Source of the DNA: an uncultured Gammaproteobacteria bacterium
GTDB lineage: Bacteria; Patescibacteriota; Microgenomatia; UBA8517
Length of the DNA stretch: 64,000 nt
Assembly: GCA_964583685.1 (NCBI GenBank)
Contig: CAZOVJ010000001.1
Location: 260,033-324,032, forward strand
Direction: 5' to 3'
The position numbers and the translations under genes are program-made. Every line of letters starts with the position of its first letter. Position 1 is the first letter of the stretch. The notes under the pieces were generated by a model. The model worked only from the letters and a program-made list of their open reading frames with translations. It was not told the origin of the DNA and did not search any database. Shown piece after piece: positions 14,998-54,470 of this stretch.

Positions 14998-15585
14998 CTA
15001 AGCCTCATCATCTTCACCAGACGATAACATCCCAGCAAAGCCCCTAGATAATTTCTCGCTTAATATTGACTCAACAATCACTTCTCTATCTCTCCCCCTA
15101 CATATATCACTGAACCAACTCATGCCAATACGGCTACCCCGAAGCCAAAGCATTATGCCTGCAACACCAATAGCAAAATCTTCTGGTTCAGCATCGTAAT
15201 ATGACCATGATTCACACTGAGCACAGAACTCTTGATTCTCAAATATCTCATTAAGCTTCCAACAAATACTCCTAATATCCGAGTCGGTCAAATTCCCAAA
15301 CAGCTCTTGCCTTCTCGGATGCTTAAATAAAATATCAGAAACTGACCCTATTACATCTCCATCAACATCAGCATTCTCTTGTCTGTGTAGACTAAAACCT
15401 GCTCTTAAAACCGAAAGAAAATCGTCAAAATCCACTGGAGGTATATCTGGTTCAAAATCCTCGGTGAGTACCTGCCTTCTTATATACTTCCCATAAAAAA
15501 AGACAACTCCTAAAACAACCACCTGTTTATCACGAGGTGAAATCATCTCCAAAGTCCCTAGGGGCTCATCTAATTCCCTCGCCAT
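14998..15585 (-). CDS. hypothetical acidic cytoplasmic protein (195 aa)
   Basis: ORF track; ~45-47% GC; Asp/Glu-rich; no known motif. Confidence 0.45.
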   Translation of the reverse strand: MARELDEPLGTLEMISPRDKQVVVLGVVFFYGKYIRRQVLTEDFEPDIPPVDFDDFLSVLRAGFSLHRQENADVDGDVIGSVSDILFKHPRRQELFGNLTDSDIRSICWKLNEIFENQEFCAQCESWSYYDAEPEDFAIGVAGIMLWLRGSRIGMSWFSDICRGRDREVIVESILSEKLSRGFAGMLSSGEDDEA

Positions 15586-15829
15586 TGCAAGAATTATAAC
15601 ATTCTAGGGCTAAGGAGTATATCAAAATATATCAGCTCCCCAATCCTGAGATTATTATAACTGTTATTTCCAAAACATTAACGGGGTTTGAGGAGCGATA
15701 CGATTTATGAAGTGGGCTGCCTCGGAAATTCTTCAATTGGATATAAAAACGCTGATTGATTTATCTTAAACAGTAGTAGCCCGCCTAGATTTTGACCCTC
15801 CTTTTTTCAGTTGTTAAGATAATAGCTCT

Positions 15830-16693
15830 ATGTATGAGCAGGATTCCCCACTAATGAATCGACGCCAATTTTTAATATCCTCTGCAGCTCTCGCCCTTGG
15901 CGAGGCAGCCGGATTTGGGAGAGAAACAAGAAAAAAAGAAACCAATCTTCAGAAACTCAGGCAATCACTTAATGAAATTATTCTGGAAATCTATGAAGAG
16001 CATCCAAATAAAAATGAATGGGCTAGTAAGCGGGAGATGCTCAATTATTACCAAAATCTAGACCACCGACCTGGATCGGAAAAGCTGGCAGACCACGACC
16101 TCCAAGAAATTATGGCTGTTGTTGCAATGCTGTACTTACTTGATGATAAAGAAATTACATACCGTTTCAAATTCGAAAGCCCTGAAGATATTAATTTGTT
16201 TTTTGGTTTGATCTTTTCCCTTACTGAAGGAACAGGTTGTTATAAACATATTGGCCTCAGTCGTGTTCCTAATACAAGTTTATGGCGGGCTTATTTTTCC
16301 AAAGGAGGTGTTGTACTCGCCAACGAGCTGATGGAGTTTTATTCTCGTTATCTGATGCACAATGCCGGTATTGTCTTTGAAAATAGCCAAATTGACTTGA
16401 GCAATTCAAGAAAAATGCTCCGGGTTGTTGTCAAAACTATTGCCTACTCAGAAGCAACAAAAATCTTTGCCACAAATTACAATCAAGCTTCCGCTGACAA
16501 CCTCAGCCAAACTAGAAATAACATACTGGGAAATTTAGACCAAAGTTACTGGGGTCACTCTGGCCATAGAACCTTAAAGGTAATGATGAGATCTCATTTA
16601 CATCTTTTTCAAGAATACAAGGACAATCCATGGGTAAGAATAAATAACGAACCACGAATAGGTGATTTTTGTTCCTTTGTTCCCGGTAGTTAA
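15830..16693 (+). CDS. hypothetical exported protein with twin-arginine-like signal (NRRQFLISSAALALGEAAG)
   Basis: S/T-RRxFL motif followed by hydrophobic/Ala stretch; alternative start at 15854 (MNRRQF...). Confidence 0.45.
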   Translation: MYEQDSPLMNRRQFLISSAALALGEAAGFGRETRKKETNLQKLRQSLNEIILEIYEEHPNKNEWASKREMLNYYQNLDHRPGSEKLADHDLQEIMAVVAMLYLLDDKEITYRFKFESPEDINLFFGLIFSLTEGTGCYKHIGLSRVPNTSLWRAYFSKGGVVLANELMEFYSRYLMHNAGIVFENSQIDLSNSRKMLRVVVKTIAYSEATKIFATNYNQASADNLSQTRNNILGNLDQSYWGHSGHRTLKVMMRSHLHLFQEYKDNPWVRINNEPRIGDFCSFVPGS

Positions 16694-16717
16694 GGCTATA
16701 ATTTTTATCGATTTTTC

Positions 16718-17713
16718 ATGGATAATCCCGACCAGCCACTGCCAAGAGGAGTAACCTATATTGCTGGTGATGAACAGCTAGTTTTTGTCGGCTTTGAATT
16801 TTATGGCAGAGAAGATTTGAAACCTTTGGAGAACAACCGACCCTCTCCCGGCTATCCCCAGTCAGAATATAGTGCTCGAGAACAAAAAGAAAGATTTCTA
16901 AGAAAAATATTAACAACAGTTAAAGTCTTGGCTAATCGGAACTACGCCCAAGACCTTCATCGTCTAAACGAAAAAACAGGGGAGATTGATTATCCTGGTC
17001 AAAAGGCAGTTTCACTGCACCTGCGGGAAATTAGCTCTTTCGACCTGGAAAGAGCCTTGGATCAAGGTATCCAGGAGAGAAACAGTAACATTGATAACTT
17101 AATTGACCAACTTCCAGGAGACGGCTGGCCGGAAAATATTGGCCTGGGAATCCGCTTCTTAGAAATTTTAAGCCAATTTGGTATCTCCCACCCTCTAATA
17201 AATGAGGATGGCAATTATGAGCCAGCCAATATGAGACTTGAACTATATAACTCGCCGTCTTATGCCGCTGAAGCTTATGAATCTTTTTATAACCCCGATA
17301 TTAATGCCGGCTATCTGCCTTTTAACTACTCAGGGCCAGAAGCTGAGCAATTGGATGCTGAAATCAGAGCATATCTTCCTATCAATCCCAGTATTCTCTA
17401 TACAATTTTCTATAATGCCTATCGTCAGGGAGCTTTTTTTCGTCTTGATTCGCCAATCCTCTTTCTATTTCAAGAAGAAGAATATCGAGAACAACTACTA
17501 ACAATGGCCGAATTTGGCATAAAATTTGATCAAGAAGCTGAAGTAATTGAATCAATCTCTCTATTTCTCAGAACTGATGCGGGAAATTTTAAAGGATACC
17601 AAATTCAAGCAAATGGTAATCTTGAAGAAATTGGTAATCTTGAAGCTATTCCCGAGGATTGTTATCTGGTTTTAAAACAAAATTATGTTTTTAGTACTCG
17701 TGCCTGGATTTGA
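16718..17713 (+). CDS. hypothetical protein (331 aa)
   Basis: ORF 24 nt downstream of previous gene (likely co-transcribed); 3' end overlaps tRNA-Val by ~18 nt. Confidence 0.45.
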   Translation: MDNPDQPLPRGVTYIAGDEQLVFVGFEFYGREDLKPLENNRPSPGYPQSEYSAREQKERFLRKILTTVKVLANRNYAQDLHRLNEKTGEIDYPGQKAVSLHLREISSFDLERALDQGIQERNSNIDNLIDQLPGDGWPENIGLGIRFLEILSQFGISHPLINEDGNYEPANMRLELYNSPSYAAEAYESFYNPDINAGYLPFNYSGPEAEQLDAEIRAYLPINPSILYTIFYNAYRQGAFFRLDSPILFLFQEEEYREQLLTMAEFGIKFDQEAEVIESISLFLRTDAGNFKGYQIQANGNLEEIGNLEAIPEDCYLVLKQNYVFSTRAWI

Positions 17714-42834: not shown

Positions 42835-43270
42835 CTTTCTTTGTTTTCTGTGCCAATTTTTCAACCAACTCTCCGGCATGACGAGCGATATAATTTTCTC
42901 TTTTCAGCCATTCTGCCCTGTTCCAAATCTCAACCCTATCGCCCAATCCGATAAAAACAAGGTCACTTTCTAAATGGGCATATCCAGCCAGAGATGCCGG
43001 AATAATTACCCGCCCTTGGTCATCGGGTTCAAGTTCAAAGGCAGAACCCAAAATAAATCTATCCGTATCTCTAACCGGGGCGGTTACCACCTGAGCTTTG
43101 CCTGTTAATTTGTTTAAAAGGGCTTGCCAATTTGTTTTTGAGATAATGATTAAGCACTCTTCATACCATCTGGCAACAATTATTTTCTCGCCCAATTCTC
43201 GTCTAAACTTATTGGGAATAGCTACCCTCCGCTTGCTACTTAGAATTCCAGAATAATGACCAATCAACAT
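42827..43270 (-). CDS. mraZ: transcriptional regulator MraZ
   Basis: Two MraZ half-domains with 'AIPNKFRREL' and 'DxxGRVIIP' motifs; first gene of dcw cluster. Confidence 0.85.
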   Translation of the reverse strand: MLIGHYSGILSSKRRVAIPNKFRRELGEKIIVARWYEECLIIISKTNWQALLNKLTGKAQVVTAPVRDTDRFILGSAFELEPDDQGRVIIPASLAGYAHLESDLVFIGLGDRVEIWNRAEWLKRENYIARHAGELVEKLAQKTKKDA

Positions 43271-43275
43271 ATCCC

Positions 43276-43303
43276 TTCACCACTTTACACCACTAATCAC
43301 CAT
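43276..43303 (-). promoter_or_regulatory. candidate MraZ operator: three direct repeats GTGGTG/ATGGTG (plus-strand CACCAC at 43278, 43288; CACCAT at 43298) with exact 10-bp phasing, 8-33 nt upstream of mraZ ATG
   Basis: Read directly; two more ACCA[C/T] copies at ~43355 and ~43364. Confidence 0.4.
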
Positions 43304-43330
43304 TTTCCATACTTTTCACGCACTTGTCAA
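43302..43330 (-). promoter_or_regulatory. putative mraZ promoter: minus-strand -35 TTGACA (plus 43325-43330), weak -10 GAAAAT ~17 nt downstream
   Basis: Hexamers read directly; -10 is weak. Confidence 0.25.
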
Positions 43331-43368
43331 GCCCCTATAACCACGCTTGCTTTTACCATTTTTACCAC

Positions 43369-43397
43369 TTGACAAGAAATAAAAGACTATATACATT
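43369..43397 (+). promoter_or_regulatory. plus-strand sigma70-like promoter: -35 TTGACA (43369-43374), 17-nt spacer, -10 TACATT (43392-43397); alternatively TATACA with 15-nt spacer
   Basis: Read directly; divergent from mraZ. Confidence 0.3.
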
Positions 43398-43400
43398 AAA

Positions 43401-43436
43401 ATCCCAGAGGCAAAAAATGCATCTGGGATTTTTTTT
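43401..43436 (+). terminator. intrinsic terminator: stem ATCCCAGA/TCTGGGAT (8 bp), 12-nt loop, T7 run
   Basis: Read directly. Confidence 0.55.
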
Positions 43437-43471
43437 AAAACAAAAACTAATAAAAACTTTCTTCAAGTCCA

Positions 43472-43496
43472 AGAGCCCCAGGGCTCTTTTTTTTTG
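43472..43496 (+). terminator. intrinsic terminator: stem AGAGCC/GGCTCT, loop CCAG, T9 run
   Basis: Read directly. Confidence 0.6.
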
Positions 43497-43639
43497 CCCA
43501 AATTTGAACCCAAATATTTATCGAGCCAGGATCGATCGCGGTTCTGGAACCGTTAATTTTTTGGGAATCTAATATACGGAGTCCTTTTGCACTTTAACAA
43601 TTAAATTGAAGGTTGATAAGAAAGCTAACTCTCCTTATT

Positions 43640-43790
43640 AGCGTTGATTTGCAACGCAGTGATTTGGGTTTTAGGTAAGGGTAAACTAAAACCCGACTTG
43701 CTGCGTTGCAGCGCGCGGCAATGGAGGAGGGGAACAAAATGCTGTATACCGTTCGATTCCGCCTGTAAAAACCATAAGGAGAAAACTGAA
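43640..43790 (+). promoter_or_regulatory. structured 5' leader of the BMP transporter gene: hairpin A (GCGTTG 43641-46 / CAACGC 43652-57), hairpin B (GGGTTTTAG 43666-74 / CTAAAACCC 43686-94), and an 11-bp long-range helix (43649-59 with 43701-11) mutually exclusive with hairpin A; RBS AAGGAG at 43776
   Basis: Complementarity read directly; riboswitch class not identifiable by eye. Confidence 0.35.
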
Positions 43791-44915
43791 ATGTTCAATC
43801 GTCTTCTGCTCTTACTACTCACCGTAGCCTTGATGACGACCCTGTCCGCTTCGGCTCAGGAGGAAGAAGCATTCCGAATCGGAGTCGTCAACATCGGTCC
43901 TAACAACGACGGTGGCTGGACTACCGCTCACATGGAGGGGCTTAGAACTGCACTGGCCCGCTTCGGCGCGGTTGAAGGCCTCGTCAACGACAACTGGGAA
44001 CCTGTAGATCTGGTTCCCATTAGCTCTCTTCGCTATAGAGTAAAATCTGGCGAAAGAATTACCATCGAACTCTCAGTAGTAGAAGCAGTGGCGCCGGAAG
44101 CCTTTTGGCGTGTTGCCGAAAGCCTGATCTTGAACTTTGGTGTGAATCTGCTGTTAAGTACAGCAGAAAACTACTGCTCTGACACTTACGGATTAGCGGC
44201 CATTTACCCAAACATCAATTTCGCTACCATCCACTGCGACTATGAAAATCCAGCGCCTAACGTGGCCAGCTACTTCGGAAGAAGTTACCAAGCAGAGTAC
44301 GCAGCCGGCGCAGCACTGGCCATAATGTCCAAGTCCGGCATAGCCTGTTTCGTCGGTGCATTCGAGGAAAACGGCCAGGTAGCAACTAATCTGGCCGGCT
44401 TCGCCAGCGGTTTCCGCGACTTTTTTGACGAAGATGTAGAAATCGCTACCCGATTCACCGGCACATGGTATGGGCCGGACTTGGAGGTCCAAGCAGCACA
44501 ATCGTGCCCCGAAGGGTACGATGTAGCCTGGGCCCACCAAGATAGTCCCTTCGCCGGAACAGTCTTTGCTGAAGACAACGCCTATTTCGTCGGCTATGAC
44601 TCAGACTGGCGTAATGCACTGGGTGAAAACCTTGCTATTACCAGTGTAGTTTACCACTGGGAAAGACTCTATTACCCTTTCATTAAAGGAGCAATAGAAG
44701 AAGACTTCCCGGCTGGTCGTCACTGGCCTGGCATAGGAGAGGAAGTCGTGGGGCTTGCACCCTGGAGTCTTTTAGCAACTGATGAGGCCAAAGAAGTTGC
44801 CAAAAACTTAGTCGAACAGATCGCTGAGGGTGAACGTGTGGTCTTCCCACATCTCAGCGAAATGGAGATTTGGAATCTGAGCGATTGGCAACTGGCTTAC
44901 GCCGGCGACCAGTAA
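43791..44915 (+). CDS. BMP-family (PnrA/Med-like) ABC transporter substrate-binding protein, secreted (signal peptide, no lipobox Cys)
   Basis: RBS AAGGAG then ATG at 43791; signal peptide MFNRLLLLLLTVALMTTLSASA; 'IGVVNIGPNNDGGWTTAHMEG' resembles BMP-family N-terminal motif; ~50% GC; track ORF start 43644 is a spurious 5' extension. Confidence 0.6.
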   Translation: MFNRLLLLLLTVALMTTLSASAQEEEAFRIGVVNIGPNNDGGWTTAHMEGLRTALARFGAVEGLVNDNWEPVDLVPISSLRYRVKSGERITIELSVVEAVAPEAFWRVAESLILNFGVNLLLSTAENYCSDTYGLAAIYPNINFATIHCDYENPAPNVASYFGRSYQAEYAAGAALAIMSKSGIACFVGAFEENGQVATNLAGFASGFRDFFDEDVEIATRFTGTWYGPDLEVQAAQSCPEGYDVAWAHQDSPFAGTVFAEDNAYFVGYDSDWRNALGENLAITSVVYHWERLYYPFIKGAIEEDFPAGRHWPGIGEEVVGLAPWSLLATDEAKEVAKNLVEQIAEGERVVFPHLSEMEIWNLSDWQLAYAGDQ

Positions 44916-44970
44916 AAGCTCTCCCCTCCTCCAAACTTCCATTCTAAAATTACCCACAAGGAAGGACGAA

Positions 44971-46008
44971 ATGCGACAAATGTCAATCTATAAAGGAAAC
45001 CCTACTCAGGTTTTGCTTTCGATTTTCTACTCACTTGCCATTGGAGGGATACTGATAGTCTTGTTAGGATACAATCCCTTCGAAGTATGCGTAGAGGCAA
45101 TCAGGTCGACTCTAGGCAGCATTCACAAGATATCTGAGCTGCTAGTCGTAGCCACCCCACTTATACTAATTTCTGTTGGCTACACTATCTCCTTCCGCAC
45201 TTCATGGAACATTGGTGCAGAAGGCCAGTATGTAGTTGGAGCCATCGCCGCAACATTCGTTAGCCTCCACCTAGTAAAAGACCAACCTACACTAGTGGCA
45301 ATTTCAACAATAGCCCTTGCCAGTATACTAACGGGGGCAAGTTATGTTTCTGTAGCAGCTTGGCTCAAACTACGCTGGAATCTAAATGTAGTCTTTCCAA
45401 CACTGATGCTAAACTTCATTAGTGTCAGAGTTGCCCAGTATCTTTACTCGGGCCCATGGAAAGATCCTTCGGGTGGTTTTCCTAGAACAGAACGATTTCC
45501 GGCAAATACAACACTACCATCTCTCTGGCCGGGAACTAGACTTCACATTGGTTTTGTGATTGCCCTAGTCGTCGCTATAGCTGTTTACGTAATCCTACGG
45601 CGTACCACCTGGGGATACGAGATTGGAGCATGCAGTCTTAATCCTCATGCGGCTCGTTATGGGGGAATAAACGTAAAAAGAGTTACCTTTCTCTCCATGG
45701 CCATAGCTGGCGCCTCAGCAGGTCTAGCAGGTGCCATGCAGGTGAGTGGGATAACTCATCGATTGGTCCCGGGTGTAGCAGCAGGATACGGAAACATCGC
45801 TATCATCATCGCCTGGCTATCCGGGCTACATCCCTTGATTACTATTCCTGTAGCTGTTGCCGTAGCTACCCTAATCCTGGGTGGAGAAAACCTCCAAATT
45901 ACACATGGAATCCCCCACGAATTTGGGGAAATCCTGGGGTATACGATAATGTACGGAGTAGTAATTATTGGCAACGAATTGACTAAAAGGTCACTCAAAA
46001 AGGAGTAA
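44971..46008 (+). CDS. ABC transporter permease (BMP/branched-chain-type permease family)
   Basis: ~9 TM helices; follows SBP gene; GC-richer. Confidence 0.7.
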   Translation: MRQMSIYKGNPTQVLLSIFYSLAIGGILIVLLGYNPFEVCVEAIRSTLGSIHKISELLVVATPLILISVGYTISFRTSWNIGAEGQYVVGAIAATFVSLHLVKDQPTLVAISTIALASILTGASYVSVAAWLKLRWNLNVVFPTLMLNFISVRVAQYLYSGPWKDPSGGFPRTERFPANTTLPSLWPGTRLHIGFVIALVVAIAVYVILRRTTWGYEIGACSLNPHAARYGGINVKRVTFLSMAIAGASAGLAGAMQVSGITHRLVPGVAAGYGNIAIIIAWLSGLHPLITIPVAVAVATLILGGENLQITHGIPHEFGEILGYTIMYGVVIIGNELTKRSLKKE

Positions 46009-46014
46009 AAAGCA

Positions 46015-46851
46015 ATGGATACAATCATCATGACTTTGACCAGCGCTGTCTCGCTGGCCTTAGCCGCCATTGGGGAGGTCATCACTGAAAAGGCTGGGGT
46101 TCTAAACCTCTCAATTGACGGTGTTATGAGTCTGGGCGGGTTAGTTGCCTTCGTTGTCGTTTACCAAACCAACAAATCAATCCTGGGAATTTTGGCTGCT
46201 GGGATACTTGGTGCCTTCTTGGGCTTTTTGCACGCAACTTTCGCTGCGCGAGGCAACAACCAGATTCTCATCGGAGTAGTACCTGCCATCCTATTCGCAA
46301 AACTTGCAAATCTACTAGGACAAAGGTATGTCAATAAAATAACTACACACCTAGAACCAGACATTCTCCTTTGGATGTTGATACCTCTTGCTGTTGGTAC
46401 CTGGTTTTTAATCCAGAAAACACACTTCGGACTAGGAATGCGCGCAGTAGGTGAGTATCCGAATGCAGCTCATGCTAACGGCGTGAAAGTTATCCGTACA
46501 CGGATAATAGCTACTGTTCTGGGCTCAGCTCTGTTTGCTATCGCCGGAGCACATATAGTCCTTGTCCTGGTACGAGGAGTCTGGAGTAATAACATTGTCA
46601 ATAACAGAGGTTGGGTAGCATACGCCATTGCTGTCTTTTCCGGCTGGAATCCAATTCTAGCTTTGGTGGGTGCTATCCTATTTGGAGCGGCAACAATAGG
46701 TCAGTTTCTGGTACAGGGACTGAATTTGGACATACCCCCAAGCCTTCTCAGTGCTACGCCATATGTCCTCGCAGGAATCGCCTATATCAGAAGCTTGAAC
46801 ACTCAACCTGCTGCCCTAGGACAAGAGTGGTCACCCGAGAATATCGCATGA
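46015..46851 (+). CDS. ABC transporter permease, second subunit
   Basis: ~8 TM helices; 6-nt gap after first permease; no ATPase gene follows. Confidence 0.7.
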   Translation: MDTIIMTLTSAVSLALAAIGEVITEKAGVLNLSIDGVMSLGGLVAFVVVYQTNKSILGILAAGILGAFLGFLHATFAARGNNQILIGVVPAILFAKLANLLGQRYVNKITTHLEPDILLWMLIPLAVGTWFLIQKTHFGLGMRAVGEYPNAAHANGVKVIRTRIIATVLGSALFAIAGAHIVLVLVRGVWSNNIVNNRGWVAYAIAVFSGWNPILALVGAILFGAATIGQFLVQGLNLDIPPSLLSATPYVLAGIAYIRSLNTQPAALGQEWSPENIA

Positions 46852-46991
46852 AACTCTTAACCGTCTCACAATCTTCAATGCCTAAGGACTCTGGGGAACG
46901 GAGGAAGTTGCAATGCTTTTGCACAATCTTGTGCCAGCAAAGCTACTTTCTCCCGCCCCATCCGTTAAAAGAATTATTTATTAAAGAAAAT

Positions 46992-48002
46992 ATGCCTTTA
47001 AAAAAAGAAGATATACCTCCATACTTGAAATTTGAGAATGGAAGGGTCGTCATTGATGAAAATTTCATTCATGAAGGCTCTTCAGGTCCATTTACTTTTC
47101 TGTCCGACTATGGAAAAAATCTTGAATATTTAAAAGAATCAACCGAAGTTGACTATCTCCCACAAGGTATTGAAATTCATGCCCGCACAAAAACTAAAGT
47201 TCGCACTGCCTCAGATAATTTAACCCGATTAGCTAATCTTGGGATTGATTTCAATATTCCCGCTTTTGGTGTGCTCTATGCTGCCAATTTCACTTTGGCT
47301 TTTATTCCACCTTTTGAGGCAGCTATTAGCAAAGCGGGTAATAGATGGAGTCTACTTGCACCCCTCAGGGGCGGAGAACCAATTCATATCATTGCAAAAG
47401 CTAAGGGTTACAAGCATAATATTCCCCGTTTTCGGGCTAGTAGGGTAATTTTGCTAAACGGAGAATACCTGGTTGGTATCCAGGAATTAGATTCAGACAT
47501 TAAACTTGAAAATGTTTTACTCCTTTGTGATGATTGCTTAGCGGCAGCCGGCTCAGCCGACACTACTGTAAGATGGGCTTGTCAGATAAACCCAAACATT
47601 AGAGAAATTTACGGTGTGGTCGGTGTGGGAGTCAAGCGCTCAACTGAAACTCTCTCCGTCACTTGGAAGAGAAACAAATTAAATTCAAGCTTTGAGATGG
47701 GAGCTGATGCTAATACAATGGATGATAATTACTATCTAAGGGTAACCGAAGAAGAAAAAGGTAGTCGATTTCCTGAGCACTGTACTTATAGGGTTGGCGA
47801 CATGGGCCAGGCAATGAACTTAACAGATGCTAGAAGAAGAAATGTTTTAGAACCAGTTATTAGGGCTGTTGCTAATCCGGGAATTGATCCTCAATTGATT
47901 TTTGAGGCTACGTCCAGAGTGGTTAAAAATCCTTTGTCTCTTCACCTATGGGCTGATAAAATCTTTACTAAGGCTCAACTTGCTCTTGCTCAGCAGTGCT
48001 GA
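46992..48002 (+). CDS. type I phosphoribosyltransferase-like protein (UPRT-like PRPP motif) with ~130-aa N-terminal extension
   Basis: PRPP-binding motif 'VLLLCDDCLAAAGSADTT' (compare UPRT 'IVDPMLATGGSA'); 'LRGG' and C-terminal 'YRVGDMGQA' regions loosely parallel UPRT; the track ORF start (46611) overlaps the permease in another frame, first in-frame ATG after it is 46992. Confidence 0.4.
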   Translation: MPLKKEDIPPYLKFENGRVVIDENFIHEGSSGPFTFLSDYGKNLEYLKESTEVDYLPQGIEIHARTKTKVRTASDNLTRLANLGIDFNIPAFGVLYAANFTLAFIPPFEAAISKAGNRWSLLAPLRGGEPIHIIAKAKGYKHNIPRFRASRVILLNGEYLVGIQELDSDIKLENVLLLCDDCLAAAGSADTTVRWACQINPNIREIYGVVGVGVKRSTETLSVTWKRNKLNSSFEMGADANTMDDNYYLRVTEEEKGSRFPEHCTYRVGDMGQAMNLTDARRRNVLEPVIRAVANPGIDPQLIFEATSRVVKNPLSLHLWADKIFTKAQLALAQQC

Positions 48003-48087
48003 TAAAAATCCCCACATCTGAAGATTTACCAAGTTTAAGTTCTTCCCATCCACCTCGCGTCCAGCGATAGTAGTTACCTTCACCCAT
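48000..48087. repeat. 88-bp direct repeat, copy 1 (orphaned 3'-end fragment of gene 49857..50600)
   Basis: Identical to 49874..49961 except 48003 T vs 49877 C. Confidence 0.9.
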
Positions 48088-49130: not shown

Positions 49131-49895
49131 ATGAGAAGAAAAGGATCAAAGGTTATTGTTGTGATGCCCGCCTATAATGCGGAGAGGACCCTCCAAAAGA
49201 CCTACAAAGATATTACTCCGGGTGTGGTTAATAAAGTAATTTTGGTTGATGATGGGAGCCACGATAAAACAGTCAAGAAGGCTGAGAAGTTGGGTATTGA
49301 AACGATTGTTCACCCCCAAAACAGAGGCTATGGTGGTAATCAGAAGACTTGTTACACAATGGCCCTCAATGAGGGGGTGGATATAGTCGTCATGATTCAC
49401 CCTGATTATCAATATGACAGCCGCTTAACAGGGGAGATCGTCAGACCGATAATTGATGGACGTTTTGATATCATGCTTGGCTCTCGAATAAGGACCAGAA
49501 AAGAAGTACTTGAAGGCGGAATGCCGGCTTATAAATATTTTGCCAATCGTTTCTTAACAGTTCTGGAAAATATTATTCTTGGCCAAAATCTTTCAGAATA
49601 TCATACTGGCTTTCGAGCATTTCACAAAAATGTGTTTAAAAAGCTACCCTTCCATAAATTTTCAGATGATTTTGTTTTTGACCAAGAAATTTTGATTTCG
49701 GCAATTCATCGGGGCTACAAAGTCGGAGAGATACCGGTTCCCGTTCGTTATTTTCCCGATGCCTCATCAATAAATTTTAGGCGCTCATTAATCTATGGTT
49801 TAGTAACACTTTTTGCCCTTTTTAAATATATTTTGGCAACATTGGGCATTTATCATTCAAAAATTTTTGCAAATGACAAAAATCCCCACATCTGA
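49131..49895 (+). CDS. family 2 glycosyltransferase, polyprenyl-phosphate sugar synthase (DPM-synthase/GtrB-like)
   Basis: 'VIVVMPAYNAERTL', 'LVDDGSHDKT', 'DYQYD'; C-terminal TM. Confidence 0.7.
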   Translation: MRRKGSKVIVVMPAYNAERTLQKTYKDITPGVVNKVILVDDGSHDKTVKKAEKLGIETIVHPQNRGYGGNQKTCYTMALNEGVDIVVMIHPDYQYDSRLTGEIVRPIIDGRFDIMLGSRIRTRKEVLEGGMPAYKYFANRFLTVLENIILGQNLSEYHTGFRAFHKNVFKKLPFHKFSDDFVFDQEILISAIHRGYKVGEIPVPVRYFPDASSINFRRSLIYGLVTLFALFKYILATLGIYHSKIFANDKNPHI

Positions 49896-50600
49896 AGATT
49901 TACCAAGTTTAAGTTCTTCCCATCCACCTCGCGTCCAGCGATAGTAGTTACCTTCACCCATCTCAATTGTTCCCGGATAAGTGTTTTTACCTGAAGTGAA
50001 TATTCCATAAGGACCTGAAGAAAGAGCTCCCGGCAGGTCAGCCGGAACTCCAAAGGTTTCCATGACCACAAAAAAAGTGCCTCTGGGAATTTTATCCAGA
50101 CTATAACTAAATTCTCCATCAACCGTGGTCAAAGCTTTGATCCCGCTTTGGAGATGAAAATCCGTACTCAACTTTCCCAACAGCTTTCCCTTATCATTTC
50201 TGAAACGAAGGGTGAGAGTTCCTTTTTCCACTCCCTCATCATATCTAAACTTACCCGAGGATTCAGAACCCAAAAGAAGATCTCTTTCAAGAAAAGTTTC
50301 ATTGTCTAAACTTACTGTTCCCGGAACGCCCTGGGTCCGGCCGTCAGAAACCCGATAAAGAAGTTCATAATCCATTGAATCGACATTAGTCACCTTAATA
50401 TCAACTATCTCAAGCTTTAACCAATGTCCGTCTTCACTTGGAGTCAGAGAAACCACTGGTCTCTGTTCAAAGGGGATCTCGGGAACAAATTTCTCCTCTT
50501 CAACAATTGTGCTCTTTCGTGTCTTGATAAACAAAAAATAGGTAGCAACAAAAACTCCTATCCCCAAGAGAAACAAAATAATGGGCAGAAACTTTTTCAT
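49857..50600 (-). CDS. hypothetical N-terminally anchored extracytoplasmic protein (247 aa)
   Basis: N-terminal TM; no motif recognised; 39-nt convergent overlap with GT2 gene. Confidence 0.5.
   Translation of the reverse strand: MKKFLPIILFLLGIGVFVATYFLFIKTRKSTIVEEEKFVPEIPFEQRPVVSLTPSEDGHWLKLEIVDIKVTNVDSMDYELLYRVSDGRTQGVPGTVSLDNETFLERDLLLGSESSGKFRYDEGVEKGTLTLRFRNDKGKLLGKLSTDFHLQSGIKALTTVDGEFSYSLDKIPRGTFFVVMETFGVPADLPGALSSGPYGIFTSGKNTYPGTIEMGEGNYYRWTRGGWEELKLGKSSDVGIFVICKNF
49874..49961. repeat. 88-bp direct repeat, copy 2 (encodes C-terminus of minus gene 49857..50600 and last 7 codons of GT2 49131..49895)
   Basis: See copy 1. Confidence 0.9.
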
Positions 50601-51914: not shown

Positions 51915-52437
51915 CGCGAAGGCTGGTCATTTCTCTTTCCACAATACTCTCTAAAACTTTATCATGTTCAAGTAGGGATTTGTTTTTCGGCCAAAAACCC
52001 AAAAGAACGAGTGAATCTTTTATAAATTTTTCCCTTAATTTTCTTAAAAATTTTGTTCGCTGGAGGTCTTCCAGGGCGTTCAATAAGAGGAAGAAAAATT
52101 GCTCATTTCTCTCGCTATCTCGGGTTAAACGTCCCACCGTCTCAAGAAGAAAATAGGCAACAGCCACTCTCCTCAAATCTTTTCTTATCAAGGAAAAGGA
52201 GTTAATTATCTCTACTTCTGCCATCAAATCCAAACCTTTCCCTCGAGAAGCGGAAAAGCGGATGTAATTAAAAACCTCCAAAGAACCTCCCTTGCGACTT
52301 TGAACTTTTCTTACTCCTTTGGCCAATAGAGAAAGTTTACCGTAATGTTTGCTATAAATAACTAAAATTCTATCTGCTTCGGAATAATTTCTTCGAGCTA
52401 AAACTACCCCTTCACTTCTGTAATTTCTAGACCTCAC
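51892..52437 (-). CDS. recO: short RecO-like DNA repair protein (OB-fold N-terminal domain)
   Basis: 'EGVVLARRNYSEADRILVIYSKHYGKLSLLAKGVRK' resembles RecO N-terminus; only 181 aa. Confidence 0.45.
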   Translation of the reverse strand: MRSRNYRSEGVVLARRNYSEADRILVIYSKHYGKLSLLAKGVRKVQSRKGGSLEVFNYIRFSASRGKGLDLMAEVEIINSFSLIRKDLRRVAVAYFLLETVGRLTRDSERNEQFFFLLLNALEDLQRTKFLRKLREKFIKDSLVLLGFWPKNKSLLEHDKVLESIVEREMTSLRVGKKLIF

Positions 52438-54470
52438 TAGATTCTGAAGCGGAGCTCCTTATCGGTTTTCAAGAAAAACTCTTCCTCTTGTTTGCCTAGA
52501 GAAATCGTGTATAGAGGAGAGTCATGACCGGCTTGTTTCTGAATCAAAAGTTTATATTCTTTGTTAAACTTGAAAGGTAGTTTATATTTAAAACTTAACT
52601 TAACAACTCCTTGAGGCCGCAAACGAAAACCACCGCAAAAAACCGTCTTGCCTAATTCCTCATAGGTTTCTCCCGCTTCTTCAAGACCATCAACAGATAT
52701 TAGTTCAGAACCCAGAGGAACATAAATTCTGGTCCAATTGGGAAGAACCGAATTCAGCCAACCATCATAGTCCTGGGGATTCTTATAAGTAATTGTCAAA
52801 AGCTTTTCCACACTTCCATCCCGAGCTATCTCAATTTCCTGATGAACTTCTTGGCTCACATAAAGATTTGATTTCCTGCCGCCCAAATTAGCATCATTGA
52901 TATGGAGATAATCTTCTTGGTAATCTTTAAGTCTGCCGGCTATATTAAATGCCTCAACACCTCTCTGAACTTCTTCATCTAACATATAAAAAAGAACATG
53001 CTTTTCGGTAAGGGATTTATAGCCGGCTTCAAAAAGCTCAGGCAGTTTATCTTTGGGTTGTCCCATTGCGTTACTCAAAATCGAATTCATCAAAGGCCCA
53101 ATTATCTTTTTCCGGTTATCTATATTTGGAGGAGCAAATACAATTTCTCCTGACACTGGATCCCAAACAATCGGGCCTTCGGTATCAGCAAAACTTTCAA
53201 GCTCGTAAATAACCTGGGGACAATCACATTCGGGAATTATTTTTGTGCTGAAATTACCAAATCCAGGTACCCCAATCTCTCCGGTTACCTCCAATAAATT
53301 AACCAATACTTGAGTATCAACAGCAATTACCCCATCAATATTTCTTATTCCCAGCTTTTGCACCTCTTGAGTAAAGAGTTCCATGCTATTTTTAAAATCA
53401 GGATTAAAATTCATATCTCGTAATCTTAAGCTCCGAGAAAGGACATAAGGACCCTTGATATATTTAATTATTGGCTCAGGAGCAGGTAAGACTGGAGTAT
53501 AACGGGCATCTAGATTATAAATATCGTTTGACAAGACCGGTTTAAACTTTCCTTTATCTACACTCATAATTGAATAGGCAGTCATAAACCCACCAGTCGG
53601 CCGTAATTCCTTGTCATTCTGAAAGAGAATTAAATAAGTTCTCTGCTCATCAATTCCTAAAAGATAAGGAGCGACCTCCAAAAGAGGTTTTCCTTGACCA
53701 ATAATATTGGCGACCTCATCAACTATCACTATCAAGCTTCTGATTTTCTCACGTATTTTTTTGCCAGCAAAAGTAACTGGATAGCGATTAGGATTAATCT
53801 TATCAATCTCTGTCTGTACCAGCTTTGTTTTCTCTGAAATTACTTCGAGCTGAGGAATAACTTCATTAATTGTTTGAACAACAAATTCAACTCTATCACT
53901 AGCGCTTTCCTCTCCACTCTGAGCCTGCTCACTTTCATCCCCTTTAAAACCAATAATGTCTGCATAGGGTTCAATTGTCGTTACTACTAGCTCGGCAGCA
54001 TCCATTCCATAAAGGCCGGCTTTAATCACCGCCTCTCCATCTTGATAATAAGCACTGAGAAGAGGAATGGGTTTAGTCCAGGAAAGATATTTGAAGGATT
54101 TCTGTAAACCAAGTAAATCGCTTCTCAGCTGAGTAATCCCCTGTTTAATTTTGTCAATATCTTGCTCCTCTCTAACAACTCCTTCTAAAGACTGAGCAGA
54201 AACAATCAGTTTCTGGGCTTTCCTATAAACAAAAAAAGAAGGTATTGTCAGGCCCAAGATAAATACAAGAAACAATATCCCTAATCCAACTAGAGTCCAA
54301 AGAACTCTCTTTTTGCCCTTATTCTTGTGCAAATTCTTCTCTTTCTCTTTTACATTCTTTGCTTCTTCTTCGTTTTCTTGATTCTCTATTCCTGGCTTAA
54401 TCTGCTCGAGATTCATTGTCTCAGATTTCAACTCAATCTTGGGAATTTCTTTTTTATTATCTTTATCCAT
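52437..54470 (-). CDS. large N-terminally anchored extracytoplasmic protein of unknown function (677 aa), glycan-locus associated
   Basis: Lys/Glu-rich N-terminus then a TM helix; no motif recognised. Confidence 0.5.
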   Translation of the reverse strand: MDKDNKKEIPKIELKSETMNLEQIKPGIENQENEEEAKNVKEKEKNLHKNKGKKRVLWTLVGLGILFLVFILGLTIPSFFVYRKAQKLIVSAQSLEGVVREEQDIDKIKQGITQLRSDLLGLQKSFKYLSWTKPIPLLSAYYQDGEAVIKAGLYGMDAAELVVTTIEPYADIIGFKGDESEQAQSGEESASDRVEFVVQTINEVIPQLEVISEKTKLVQTEIDKINPNRYPVTFAGKKIREKIRSLIVIVDEVANIIGQGKPLLEVAPYLLGIDEQRTYLILFQNDKELRPTGGFMTAYSIMSVDKGKFKPVLSNDIYNLDARYTPVLPAPEPIIKYIKGPYVLSRSLRLRDMNFNPDFKNSMELFTQEVQKLGIRNIDGVIAVDTQVLVNLLEVTGEIGVPGFGNFSTKIIPECDCPQVIYELESFADTEGPIVWDPVSGEIVFAPPNIDNRKKIIGPLMNSILSNAMGQPKDKLPELFEAGYKSLTEKHVLFYMLDEEVQRGVEAFNIAGRLKDYQEDYLHINDANLGGRKSNLYVSQEVHQEIEIARDGSVEKLLTITYKNPQDYDGWLNSVLPNWTRIYVPLGSELISVDGLEEAGETYEELGKTVFCGGFRLRPQGVVKLSFKYKLPFKFNKEYKLLIQKQAGHDSPLYTISLGKQEEEFFLKTDKELRFRI

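Follow-up and report, generated by a model that had tools for sequence, protein, structure and literature searches.

We begin by considering a locus in a low-GC sediment bacterium where the genes of an ABC importer stand upstream of a gene resembling a phosphoribosyltransferase (PRT). The question that this locus raises is whether the three transporter genes and their PRT-like neighbour make up a unit for base salvage, a reading that is plausible but unproven. Within the window (the whole stretch of DNA that was analysed, 64 kb), the best explanation as a whole, to which we give somewhat more belief than doubt, is an acquired BMP-type importer without its ATPase that lies beside a resident type I PRT.

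Gene layout and composition

The solute-binding protein (SBP), of the BMP/PnrA family, is encoded at 43791-44915 on the + strand and matches the Pfam model Bmp (PF02608) at 88.8 bits (cut-off 24.1, E 4e-25). Two BMP-type ABC permeases follow on the same strand, the NupP-like permease 1 (345 aa, 44971-46008) and the NupQ-like permease 2 (278 aa, 46015-46851); both match BPD_transp_2 (PF02653) above cut-off, at 127.7 bits (E 6e-37) and 88.6 bits (E 5e-25) respectively. With intergenic gaps of 55 nt and 6 nt, these genes are indeed the tight SBP-permease-permease module of the original prediction.

The 52 other ORFs of the window (mean GC 0.385, sd 0.026; mean GC3 0.341, sd 0.029) serve as the reference for composition. 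GC and GC3 are 0.520 (z = 5.2) and 0.533 (z = 6.6) in the SBP, 0.465 (z = 3.1) and 0.410 (z = 2.4) in permease 1, and 0.478 (z = 3.6) and 0.444 (z = 3.6) in permease 2. The module is GC-richer than its flanks, as had been claimed, by 3-6 sd, and the earlier figure of about 50% GC fits the SBP and is a little high for the permeases. Strong AAGGAG-type Shine-Dalgarno (SD) sites precede all three genes, a feature that the PRT gene and many native genes do not share.

Could these be native genes whose GC is raised by amino-acid composition or by expression-linked codon choice, with no transfer? GC1 is high (0.54-0.57) in the hydrophobic, Ala/Gly-rich permeases, but GC3 is raised too, including in the soluble SBP, and the GC3 of native membrane proteins (MraY and FtsW, for example) is 0.34-0.36. 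SBP homologues are few (six proteins with E<=1e-10 in 5.8 billion, the window's own sequence included), and the two nearest (54% and 42% identity) lie on contigs of 56% and 62% GC, with another relative on a contig of 72% GC. We regard this native origin as very improbable. The neighbours of the two nearest homologues are xanthine dehydrogenase and AllH at one and a 5'-nucleotidase at the other.

A foreign origin of the transporter genes is supported by the GC3, by the SD sites, by the 56% GC contig of the nearest SBP homologue (L009) and by a block of leader held in common with that homologue. This 5' leader contains a long hairpin with 25-nt arms and an 11-nt loop (43650..43710, + strand, from an inverted-repeat search), and the region 43600-43800 has a folding energy of -67.7 kcal/mol (z = -5.3 against shuffles); no Rfam family matches the leader. 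The block that aligns with the L009 leader (43697..43742, + strand) contains a CTGC-N6-GCAG palindrome and a strong SD, GGAGGAGGGG (43723-43732). Between these two independent sequences the block is, as judged by eye, about 80% identical in nucleotides, against only 54% identity for the proteins. Behind this strong SD the sequence shows a possible 9-codon uORF (MLYTVRFRL, 43739..43768, + strand), perhaps with a function of its own, and the L009 leader carries one of 14 codons at the corresponding position.

On the preferred view, some 3.2 kb of DNA (about 43.65-46.85 kb) would have been acquired horizontally from a higher-GC lineage and inserted between the mraZ promoter region and the resident gene. 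The best permease matches, at most 46% identical and spread over mixed phyla, single out no donor. A direct repeat of 88 bp just downstream of the locus marks a further rearrangement.

The ATPase and the state of the permeases

Of a BMP-type (CUT2-like) ABC importer, the acquired block would encode no more than the part that recognises the substrate and the membrane part, a heterodimeric permease, the tandem-NBD ATPase being absent. No Walker A or LSGGQ motif is found in any long ORF of the 64 kb, and a tblastn search of the window with two BMP-type tandem-NBD ATPases (from L016 and L021) returns no match (best E 0.12-4). The absence of an ATPase from the operon, already pointed out in the original prediction, thus extends to the whole window. 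The gene does not sit just outside the module either: the left flank (mraZ/rsmH) and the right flank (a ferredoxin and an FNR-like reductase) are unrelated genes on the - strand, so that no ATPase there can belong to the transporter operon. The two closest permease relatives (L021, L016) keep the canonical ATPase-permease-permease order, in which the ATPase immediately precedes permease 1, so that the operon found here is one that lacks its ATPase. The importer, if active, must use one encoded elsewhere. Such an arrangement had been thought notable in itself; it is not without precedent, as unlinked BMP components are already known: two other loci (L014/L015) have a permease pair without an adjacent ATPase, and in Borrelia the ATPase/permease system that the Bmp SBP genes are described as serving is named separately, as BB0677-0679 (PMC7093131).

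The next question is whether the transporter genes are still functional. Permease 1 is intact and unusually divergent; it matches the NCBIfam model ABC_B6_perm_2 at 2e-53, below that model's cut-off, and its best homologues are only 37-46% identical. It departs from its 119 homologues at 7 of the 47 positions that are at least 90% conserved among them (homologue mean 1.4, sd 1.8), which makes it the second most deviant of the 120 sequences, with one homologue (8 departures) ahead of it. One of its changes, G222S, replaces a coupling-helix Gly that is invariant in 119/119 homologues. Permease 2 is about 30 aa shorter than its homologues through a loop deletion and keeps the ATPase coupling motif RAVGE.P..A...G.

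These features can also be read as those of a non-functional remnant: a partial ABC operon would have arrived through horizontal transfer, or would have lost its ATPase by deletion, and would not yet be disrupted, and its position beside the PRT-like gene would be meaningless. The ATPase that the closest permease relatives have immediately upstream is absent, permease 1 is deviant, also in its coupling helix, a loop is deleted from permease 2, the SBP is without a lipobox, and the direct repeat shows other rearrangement at the locus. The high, unameliorated GC3 indicates a recent arrival, so that intact ORFs alone are no proof of selection. On the other hand, about 3 kb of foreign coding sequence holds three intact ORFs with their SD sites and tight spacing, the conserved structured leader and the coupling motif of permease 2 are kept, and permease pairs without an adjacent ATPase occur in other genomes, as noted above. 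We take a dead remnant to be possible but rather doubtful.

Ligand of the binding protein

If the importer works, its ligand is suggested by the SBP, a protein of 374 aa with an SPase-I-type signal peptide (ASA|Q) and without a lipobox Cys, so that it has no lipid anchor. Its sequence matches in the PDB are 3S99 (6e-23) and AtzT (5e-18), and with its AF2 model (pLDDT 85) Foldseek ranks the same two first (E 5e-20, TMt 0.79-0.84). By sequence and by predicted fold, the SBP is closest to these purine-base binders rather than to the nucleoside-binding PnrA, which changes the initial comparison with PnrA-type nucleoside importers. The affinity of AtzT is 110 nM for guanine and 2.5 uM for adenine, 3S99 holds adenine, and AtzT-type SBPs barely bind uracil (KD 1.6 mM) (PMC6834077).

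In a mapping made by hand on the sequence alignment, the two stacking residues are conserved (W43/W226 for Tyr45/Trp194 of AtzT), as is the H-x-D of 3S99 (AHQDSP), and the pocket changes are Ser97 to Ala, Phe98 to Glu and Pro-Glu165 to Gly-Gln (S97A, E165Q). These changes are common only to the SBP and its two closest homologues, which suggests that the ligand may differ from that of AtzT and 3S99; with several ligand-contacting positions altered, it could be, for example, an oxopurine or another heterocycle. The acquired protein would then be a periplasmic-type member of the AtzT/3S99 subgroup of purine-base binders, its pocket re-tuned, probably for a planar purine-like heterocycle.

The downstream enzyme

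We turn our attention to the PRT-like gene (46992..48002, + strand, 336 aa), which is identified from its AF2 model, Foldseek, hhalign and a family profile. The ATG at 46992 is supported by homologue N-termini and by the NCBI gene call. The longer ORF 46611-48002 was rejected as the gene, as it overlaps permease 2 by 241 nt and its upstream extension is not coding. The long N-terminal extension that had been claimed is largely an artefact of this ORF; what stands of it are N-terminal beta-strands (residues 12-39), which, with a C-terminal helical extension (residues 280-335), are real extra segments relative to a 208-aa UPRTase.

The protein has no Pfam, NCBIfam or PADLOC match. Its AF2 model (pLDDT 87.7, pTM 0.88) has UPRTases as the top PDB matches in Foldseek (5e38: E 2e-6, TMt 0.71), and the PRPP motif VLLLCDDCLAAAGSADTT (residues 175-192) is placed by the model in what is supported as a genuine type I PRT fold most like UPRTase, in agreement with the uracil-PRTase-like assignment made at the outset. 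The further motifs are PLRGG (124-128), RxSRV (148-152), DDCLAAAGS (180-188), YYL (247-249) and RVGDMG (267-272), and in hhalign against E. coli Upp (E 1e-3) the PPi loop PLRGG aligns with PILRAG and the PRPP loop DDCLAAAGS with DPMLATGGS. The family profile also matches an APRT (5yw2) at 2e-5 through the PRPP loop; with this loop nearest to APRT in sequence, a purine substrate is possible too. The protein most likely converts a free nucleobase and PRPP to a nucleoside monophosphate.

The family is small, with 71 cluster representatives and no Pfam or NCBIfam model; none of 31 members (0/31) reaches a Pfam cut-off, the best being one marginal match to PF00156 (E 0.015). D180, D181, A184, R151, V268, D270, M271 and G272 are invariant in these 31 members, while C182 and G187 reach at least 90% conservation, the Cys being invariant in the 10 closest. 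The resident gene would thus belong to a small unannotated type I PRT clade with UPRTase-like architecture and an intact PRPP-binding site.

One unit or two neighbours

Can the two parts be one salvage unit? The PRT fold and the importer parts are real; the PRT gene, however, is native in composition (GC 0.407, z = 0.8; GC3 0.315, z = -0.9) and outside the imported block, and GC is back to the native level (0.414) in the 140-nt spacer (46852..46991, + strand). What had been called a unit is then a secondary juxtaposition and not a co-inherited operon. The spacer holds no predicted terminator-like site, and no SD precedes the PRT-like gene; with both genes on the same strand, their co-transcription is possible.

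The neighbourhoods of the family bear on the same question. Its contigs have 38-44% GC, and in other low-GC genomes its members adjoin pyrG, prs or a UPRTase homologue. With X as the family member, the order is UPRTase-X-pyrG-(IMPDH-like)-purB-purA at L001/L004 and X ... prs-pyrG-PRT-PNP/Bmp fusion at L005. An adjoining transporter is absent at all the other family loci that could be examined (L001, L004, L005, L017, L020). Given the different origins of the two parts and the lack of an adjoining BMP transporter at L001, L004, L017 and L020, their adjacency may be a coincidence. The PRT fold points to uracil and the SBP relatives point to purines.

It is thus conceivable that the transporter works with a trans-encoded ATPase to import a purine catabolite or another heterocycle, while the PRT-like enzyme independently serves pyrimidine salvage. 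The differing compositional origins, the family's usual place beside pyrG and UPRTase, the purine-catabolic neighbours of the SBP relatives and the poor binding of uracil by AtzT-type SBPs (set against a UPRTase-like fold) all agree with this. Against it, the family member at L005 has the PNP-Bmp fusion 4 kb away, an SBP homologue stands together with a PRT at L012, the APRT-like loop leaves a purine substrate possible, and the spacer is free of a predicted terminator. We judge this separation of roles to be unlikely. Under the acquired importer beside a resident PRT, which we prefer, a base brought in would be trapped by the adjoining PRT or by another one. Overall, our verdict is an ordinary foreign transporter fragment beside a moderately novel enzyme family, and the main interest lies with the unnamed family, less so with the transporter.

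Comparison with known systems

Among known systems, the BMP/PnrA-type nucleoside importers (T. pallidum PnrA-E, B. subtilis NupNOPQ, S. pneumoniae PnrA, Borrelia BmpD with BB0677-0679) share with the window PF02608 and two PF02653 permeases. A binding protein and two permeases, as here, is the usual order of the Nup and Pnr operons, which usually have an ATPase gene between the SBP and the permeases; the window has none there or anywhere in its 64 kb. In fold the SBP resembles BmpD and PnrA (TMt 0.76-0.82), but it is only 16-19% identical to nucleoside binders, has no sequence-level PDB match to them, and starts with an SPase-I signal peptide where they have a lipoprotein anchor. A part in the salvage of nucleotide precursors by bacteria of reduced metabolism is a plausible likeness, and the separately named ATPase/permease system of Borrelia (PMC7093131) is another. 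AtzT (6PI5) and Brucella 3S99 are nearer, with the best sequence and fold matches, the aromatic sandwich (W43/W226), the H-x-D of 3S99 and a periplasmic-type signal peptide; the window SBP is nevertheless only 21-23% identical to them and carries about 30 inserted aa behind helix 1.

For the PRT-like protein, Upp (PF14681) matches best in structure (TMt up to 0.71, probability 1.0), with the same motif order of PPi loop, flexible-loop Arg, PRPP loop and C-terminal aromatic-plus-GD (YYL...VGDMG vs GYIIPGLGDAGD). It differs from Upp in being only 12-15% identical, with no PF14681 or PF00156 match, and in its length (336 aa vs about 208 aa), with a beta segment added at the N-terminus, about 15 aa inserted before VGDMG and three further helices at the C-terminus; it also lacks a second GD(R/K), and its family has DD and a conserved Cys where Upp has DP. 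As the family member at L001/L004 adjoins a separate PF14681 protein, its role there is probably not just that of the cell's UPRTase. Apt is the nearest in the sequence of the PRPP-binding loop (vlfvDDClAaaGs vs VLVVDDLLATGGT; profile E 2e-5), a match limited to about 40 residues, whereas the overall fold ranking puts the UPRTases first.

Locus organization and base composition

The locus consists of four genes on the plus strand at 43.6-48.0 kb. The substrate-binding protein (SBP) gene (43791-44915, 374 aa) matches the Pfam family Bmp/PnrA-like (PF02608), and it is followed by permease 1 (44971-46008, 345 aa) and permease 2 (46015-46851, 278 aa), which both match BPD_transp_2 (PF02653). The fourth gene (46992-48002) encodes a phosphoribosyltransferase (PRT)-like protein of 336 aa with no Pfam or NCBIfam match. 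The spacers are 55 nt between the SBP gene and permease 1, and 140 nt between permease 2 and the PRT-like gene. No terminator-like site is predicted in this last spacer, and read-through transcription is therefore possible. On the opposite strand, the mraZ-rsmH cell-division cluster begins at the left flank, and a ferredoxin and an FNR-like reductase are found at the right. The locus has only two other copies (L007 and L008), each 100% identical to the window, which come from a JGI metagenome and from the run SRR3095939. This run, from Baltic Sea sediment, is listed with samples from the Bornholm Basin and Aarhus Bay that were taken 0.75-3 m below the sea floor (PMC9301287).

The original prediction described a GC-richer module, and we examine this per gene against the 52 other ORFs of the window (GC mean 0.385, sd 0.026; GC3 mean 0.341, sd 0.029; mean GC of the whole window 39.1%). 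The SBP gene stands far out in both GC (0.520, z = 5.2) and GC3 (0.533, z = 6.6). The values are 0.465 and 0.410 for permease 1, and 0.478 and 0.444 for permease 2, while the PRT-like gene (0.407 and 0.315) is the same as the background. The shift is not a matter of hydrophobic residues, because the native membrane proteins of the window have a GC3 of about 0.34-0.36. All three transporter genes also carry AAGGAG-type Shine-Dalgarno sites, which are absent from the PRT-like gene and from many native genes. The anomaly is therefore real and confined to the three transporter genes and their leader; the PRT-like gene does not share it. The GC-rich block is probably a recent arrival, since its GC3 has not yet come close to that of the host, and its intact ORFs alone are therefore no proof of selection. 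Flanking repeats were considered as insertion scars of this block and rejected, as the only matches are of 12-16 nt, at chance level.

Just downstream there is an 88-bp direct repeat with one mismatch (48000-48087 and 49874-49961). The second copy codes for residues ~214-242 of a 247-aa ORF on the minus strand (49857-50600). The first, a duplicate that does not code, begins precisely where the PRT-like gene has its stop codon. The 1.8 kb between the two copies contains the ferredoxin, the FNR-like reductase and a GT2 glycosyltransferase, with native GC throughout. The region resembles the scar of a segmental insertion or duplication, so that the locus appears to have been rearranged more than once. 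A role in a defence system was rejected, as neither the PRT-like protein nor the SBP nor the 247-aa neighbour has a PADLOC match. Elsewhere in the window, a DUF4012 protein is encoded at 52437-54470, and long series of ORFs that resemble glycosyltransferase genes flank the cell-division cluster (5.4-14.9 kb and 55-64 kb).

The substrate-binding protein and its leader

The assignment of the SBP to the BMP family is confirmed by the HMM search, with a PF02608 score of 88.8 bits (curated cut-off 24.1, E 4e-25) over profile positions 33-288 of 301. For the transporter genes, NCBIfam gives sub-threshold similarity only, to a BMP-type 'B6' transporter. The AF2 model of the SBP (pLDDT 85) has the two-lobe cluster-B SBP fold and superposes on the solved BMP proteins. 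The best PDB matches from Foldseek are AtzT and the Brucella protein 3S99 (E 5e-20, TMt 0.79-0.84), with BmpD and PnrA at TMt 0.76-0.82. The same two proteins are the best when the solved structures are searched by sequence (3S99 6e-23, AtzT 5e-18), and the nucleoside-binding Lbp, BmpD and PnrA rank after them with 16-19% identity. AtzT binds free guanine at 110 nM and adenine at 2.5 uM; its affinity for uracil is very low, and GTP is not bound. 3S99 holds adenine (PMC6834077).

The ligand contacts in AtzT are the Tyr45/Trp194 stack, Ser97, Glu165, Asn218 and Asn220 (PMC6834077). We placed these residues on the SBP by hand from the HMMER alignment, with the residue numbers of that paper. By this mapping, the aromatic sandwich of AtzT is kept (W43 and W226 for Tyr45 and Trp194) and so are a His and an Asp seen in 3S99, while Ser97 is replaced by Ala and Glu165 by Gln. 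Judged from these alignments, the best reading is that the SBP would bind a planar purine-like base or catabolite and not a nucleoside.

The SBP is rare, with 6 proteins in 5.8 billion at E<=1e-10 including the one in the window. Its two nearest homologues (54% and 42% identical) form a subclade with it, which is marked by a ~30-aa insertion and altered pocket motifs (STAENY, ENGQV, HQDS). By inspection, the N-terminus of the SBP has a hydrophobic stretch ending ASA|Q with no Cys and hence no lipobox, and all three proteins of the subclade carry putative signal peptides with no lipobox, in contrast to the more distant homologues P0013-15, which do have one. The contigs of the two nearest homologues are of 56-62% GC, near the 52% of the SBP gene in the window. 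Their neighbouring genes encode a xanthine-dehydrogenase-type molybdoprotein with AllH, and a 5'-nucleotidase.

The SBP gene also has a conserved leader. The region 43600-43790 is strongly structured (z = -5.3), with a hairpin at 43650-43710. A block at 43697-43742 recurs upstream of the gene for the closest SBP homologue, in its leader (L009, 3390-3436), where the two independent sequences are roughly 80% identical by eye. It contains a CTGC-N6-GCAG palindrome and a strong Shine-Dalgarno site, followed in both by a short uORF (43739-43768 in the window). At gathering thresholds, the leader matches no Rfam family. A known riboswitch (purine, xanthine or other) was rejected, as a search of 43250-43850 at E<=10 returns only chance-level miRNA and sRNA matches. 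The leader may be an undescribed cis-regulatory element of the subclade. With its altered purine-type pocket and conserved leader, the SBP defines a small group. We also observe two terminator-like elements on the plus strand between mraZ and the SBP gene, each a hairpin with a T-run (43398-43440 and 43471-43497). No plus-strand gene lies upstream of them. Since each also has an A-run at its other end, they could terminate transcription in both directions and be relics of an earlier gene arrangement.

The permeases and the missing ATPase

Both permeases are of the BMP type as predicted, with 127.7 bits (permease 1) and 88.6 bits (permease 2) against the PF02653 cut-off of 26.8. The module was also said to lack an ATPase gene, and this holds within the 64-kb window: none of its long ORFs contains a Walker A or LSGGQ motif in a six-frame scan, and tblastn with the ATPases of two loci with related permeases (L016 and L021) finds no tandem-NBD ATPase (2 x PF00005) there, the best E being 0.12-4. 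These two loci hold the closest readable relatives of permease 1 (42% identity for L021, 40% for L016) in the order ATPase-permease-permease, with the ATPase abutting permease 1. The ATPase gene is therefore truly missing at the window locus. Split BMP systems do occur in other genomes, since L014 (5879-8051) and L015 (5545-7704) have a related permease pair adjoined by neither SBP nor ATPase, which lies between a histidine kinase (itself preceded by a cytidine deaminase) and fumarase. The Bmp binding proteins of Borrelia have been described as delivering nucleosides to a separately named ATPase/permease system, BB0677-0679 (PMC7093131). An importer with no adjoining ATPase is unusual but not unprecedented.

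From these observations we propose that a resident salvage gene, encoding a divergent PRT, gained a foreign neighbour. This neighbour would be a block of ~3.2 kb with the leader, the SBP and the permease pair of a purine-type BMP importer but not its ATPase, and read-through from permease 2 could extend into the PRT-like gene. Provided that the permeases are served by an ATPase from elsewhere in the genome, a base would be imported and then phosphoribosylated. We hold this composite account to be slightly better than an even bet, and importer activity is its weakest link.

If there is no such ATPase, the block would be a recent, still-intact remnant. The evidence on whether the importer still works is mixed. 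Permease 1 departs from the consensus at 7 of the 47 positions that are conserved in at least 90% of its 119 best homologues (at the same positions the homologues have 1.4 departures on average, sd 1.8, maximum 8), and one of the seven is a coupling-helix glycine invariant in all 119. Permease 2 lacks a loop of ~30 aa. These features are what a decaying remnant may look like; against it stand three intact ORFs over 3 kb, the retained ribosome-binding sites and the coupling motif RAVGE.P..A...G kept in permease 2. We consider the remnant unlikely, yet a serious competitor. A loss of the Glu in the 'GEN' coupling motif of permease 1 was considered and rejected, since that position is not conserved among the homologues; it is the adjoining invariant Gly that differs.

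Should the genome have no ATPase at all, the SBP and permeases might still act as a high-affinity facilitator, with flux driven by the adjacent PRT, which would trap the base by turning it into a nucleotide with PRPP. ABC-type membrane subunits would then work independently of an ATPase, in a manner resembling group translocation. No observation speaks for this model and the separate origins of the transporter and the PRT-like gene speak against it; we regard it as very improbable. The transporter part in itself adds little, being one more horizontally moved and incomplete BMP module.

The PRT-like gene and its family

We turn to the PRT-like gene, which is the more useful result because it belongs to a compact family that has neither a Pfam nor an NCBIfam model. 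A longer ORF that opens at 46611 shares 241 nt with permease 2; the start is the ATG at 46992, where the N-termini of the homologues align, and the NCBI call gives the same 336-aa product. The PRPP-binding loop, VLLLCDDCLAAAGS, has the type I PRT pattern (four hydrophobic residues, two acidic, then a small-residue loop ending G-S/T) and aligns to the loops of APRT and UPRT. D180, D181 and A184 are invariant in 31 family sequences and G187 is kept in at least 90%; the other residues invariant in these close members are F100, R151, G211, Y248, V268, D270, M271, G272 and M275.

The AF2 model, built with a ten-sequence alignment (pLDDT 87.7, pTM 0.88), places this loop in the alpha/beta core of a PRT fold. 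UPRTases head the PDB matches from Foldseek (5e38: E 2e-6, TMt 0.71), with OPRT, APRT and HGPRT next, and the best 50 matches are all chains of these four types (probability 0.99-1.0). The profile comparisons agree with the fold. Hhalign of the family with E. coli Upp gives E 1e-3 and pairs PLRGG with PILRAG and DDCLAAAGS with DPMLATGGS, and the family profile also matches the Francisella APRT (2e-5) through the PRPP loop. The fold, the profile matches and the conserved residues therefore show that the original prediction was right both in the motif and in calling the protein most like UPRTase. The UPRTase family PF14681, nevertheless, has no match to the window protein at E<=0.1 or to any of the 31 family members, none of which reaches the Pfam cut-off of any model.

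A word-seeded search of 5.8 billion proteins gives nine family members. When 1.84 billion 50%-identity clusters are searched exhaustively with the profile, 71 representatives are found, of which 27 fall below 1e-30. Contig scans that use the alignment of the family find only one genome-contig locus (on the same contig as L005, a family locus) and three short metagenome loci. A distant tier of ~300-aa proteins (P0038-P0063) shares the DDC and VGDMG motifs, and thus the superfamily is wider than the 27 close representatives. In 24 members of this tier, R151 and the DDC triplet are present in all and the VGDMG residues in 92-96%. Most proteins of the tier have Asn in place of Arg in the PPi loop (PLNGG), and none of five tested has a Pfam match.

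The genomic contexts of the family bear on its putative function. Two related genomes (L001 8968-16446 and L004 8030-14340) have family members with 80% mutual identity and share a gene order: directly after the ATP synthase operon comes a compact salvage operon with a PF14681 UPRTase homologue, the family member, pyrG, purB and purA; L001 alone has a 351-aa CBS-less IMPDH/GMP-reductase-like gene between pyrG and purB. The UPRTase homologue (85 bits to PF14681 in L001) has the PRPP loop LLHPANGAGGS, with H-P for D-P. Paralogy of the family and this neighbour was rejected, since BLAST finds no similarity between them and the hhalign E value is 0.28. The 4 kb after the family member of L005, which represents an independent lineage, hold prs, pyrG, a 176-aa PRT and a 633-aa fusion (15448-17349) of a PNP_UDP_1 phosphorylase (132 bits) and a Bmp domain (182 bits) with no permease nearby; the fusion could be an exported enzyme that frees bases from nucleosides. 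The shorter contigs L017 and L020 have no salvage genes, nor are other salvage genes (pyrG, prs, purA, purB, UPRTase or another PRT) found in the window. The family contigs are of 38-44% GC, matching the native composition of the PRT-like gene in the window. With salvage neighbours in two independent lineages, the genomic context therefore supports a link between the family and nucleotide salvage.

If active, the modelled protein is predicted to transfer ribose-5-phosphate from PRPP to a base. The fold and the pyrG linkage suggest uracil, but the substrate may also be a purine or a different base, given the separate UPRTase homologue in L001 and L004 and the APRT-like PRPP loop. That the DDC/VGDMG proteins are an undescribed clade of active base PRTs, serving a salvage step in small low-GC genomes, is a tentative proposal to which we give somewhat less than an even chance. 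If it is true, metabolic reconstructions of such genomes miss a salvage step.

The comparison with UPRTase itself brings out how divergent the protein is. It has an additional N-terminal beta segment and C-terminal three-helix extension, and a DD-Cys acidic pair where UPRTase has D-P. The candidate uracil-binding motif consists of YYL, an insertion of about 15-17 aa and R-V-G-D-M-G, in which V, D, M and G are invariant. Its equivalence to the C-terminal motif of UPRTase (Y-I-x-P-G-x-G-D-x-G-D-R/K) is based on the motif order and a partial hhalign alignment, by which the PRT-like protein differs from UPRTase in having this insertion before VGDMG and in having lost the second GD(R/K).
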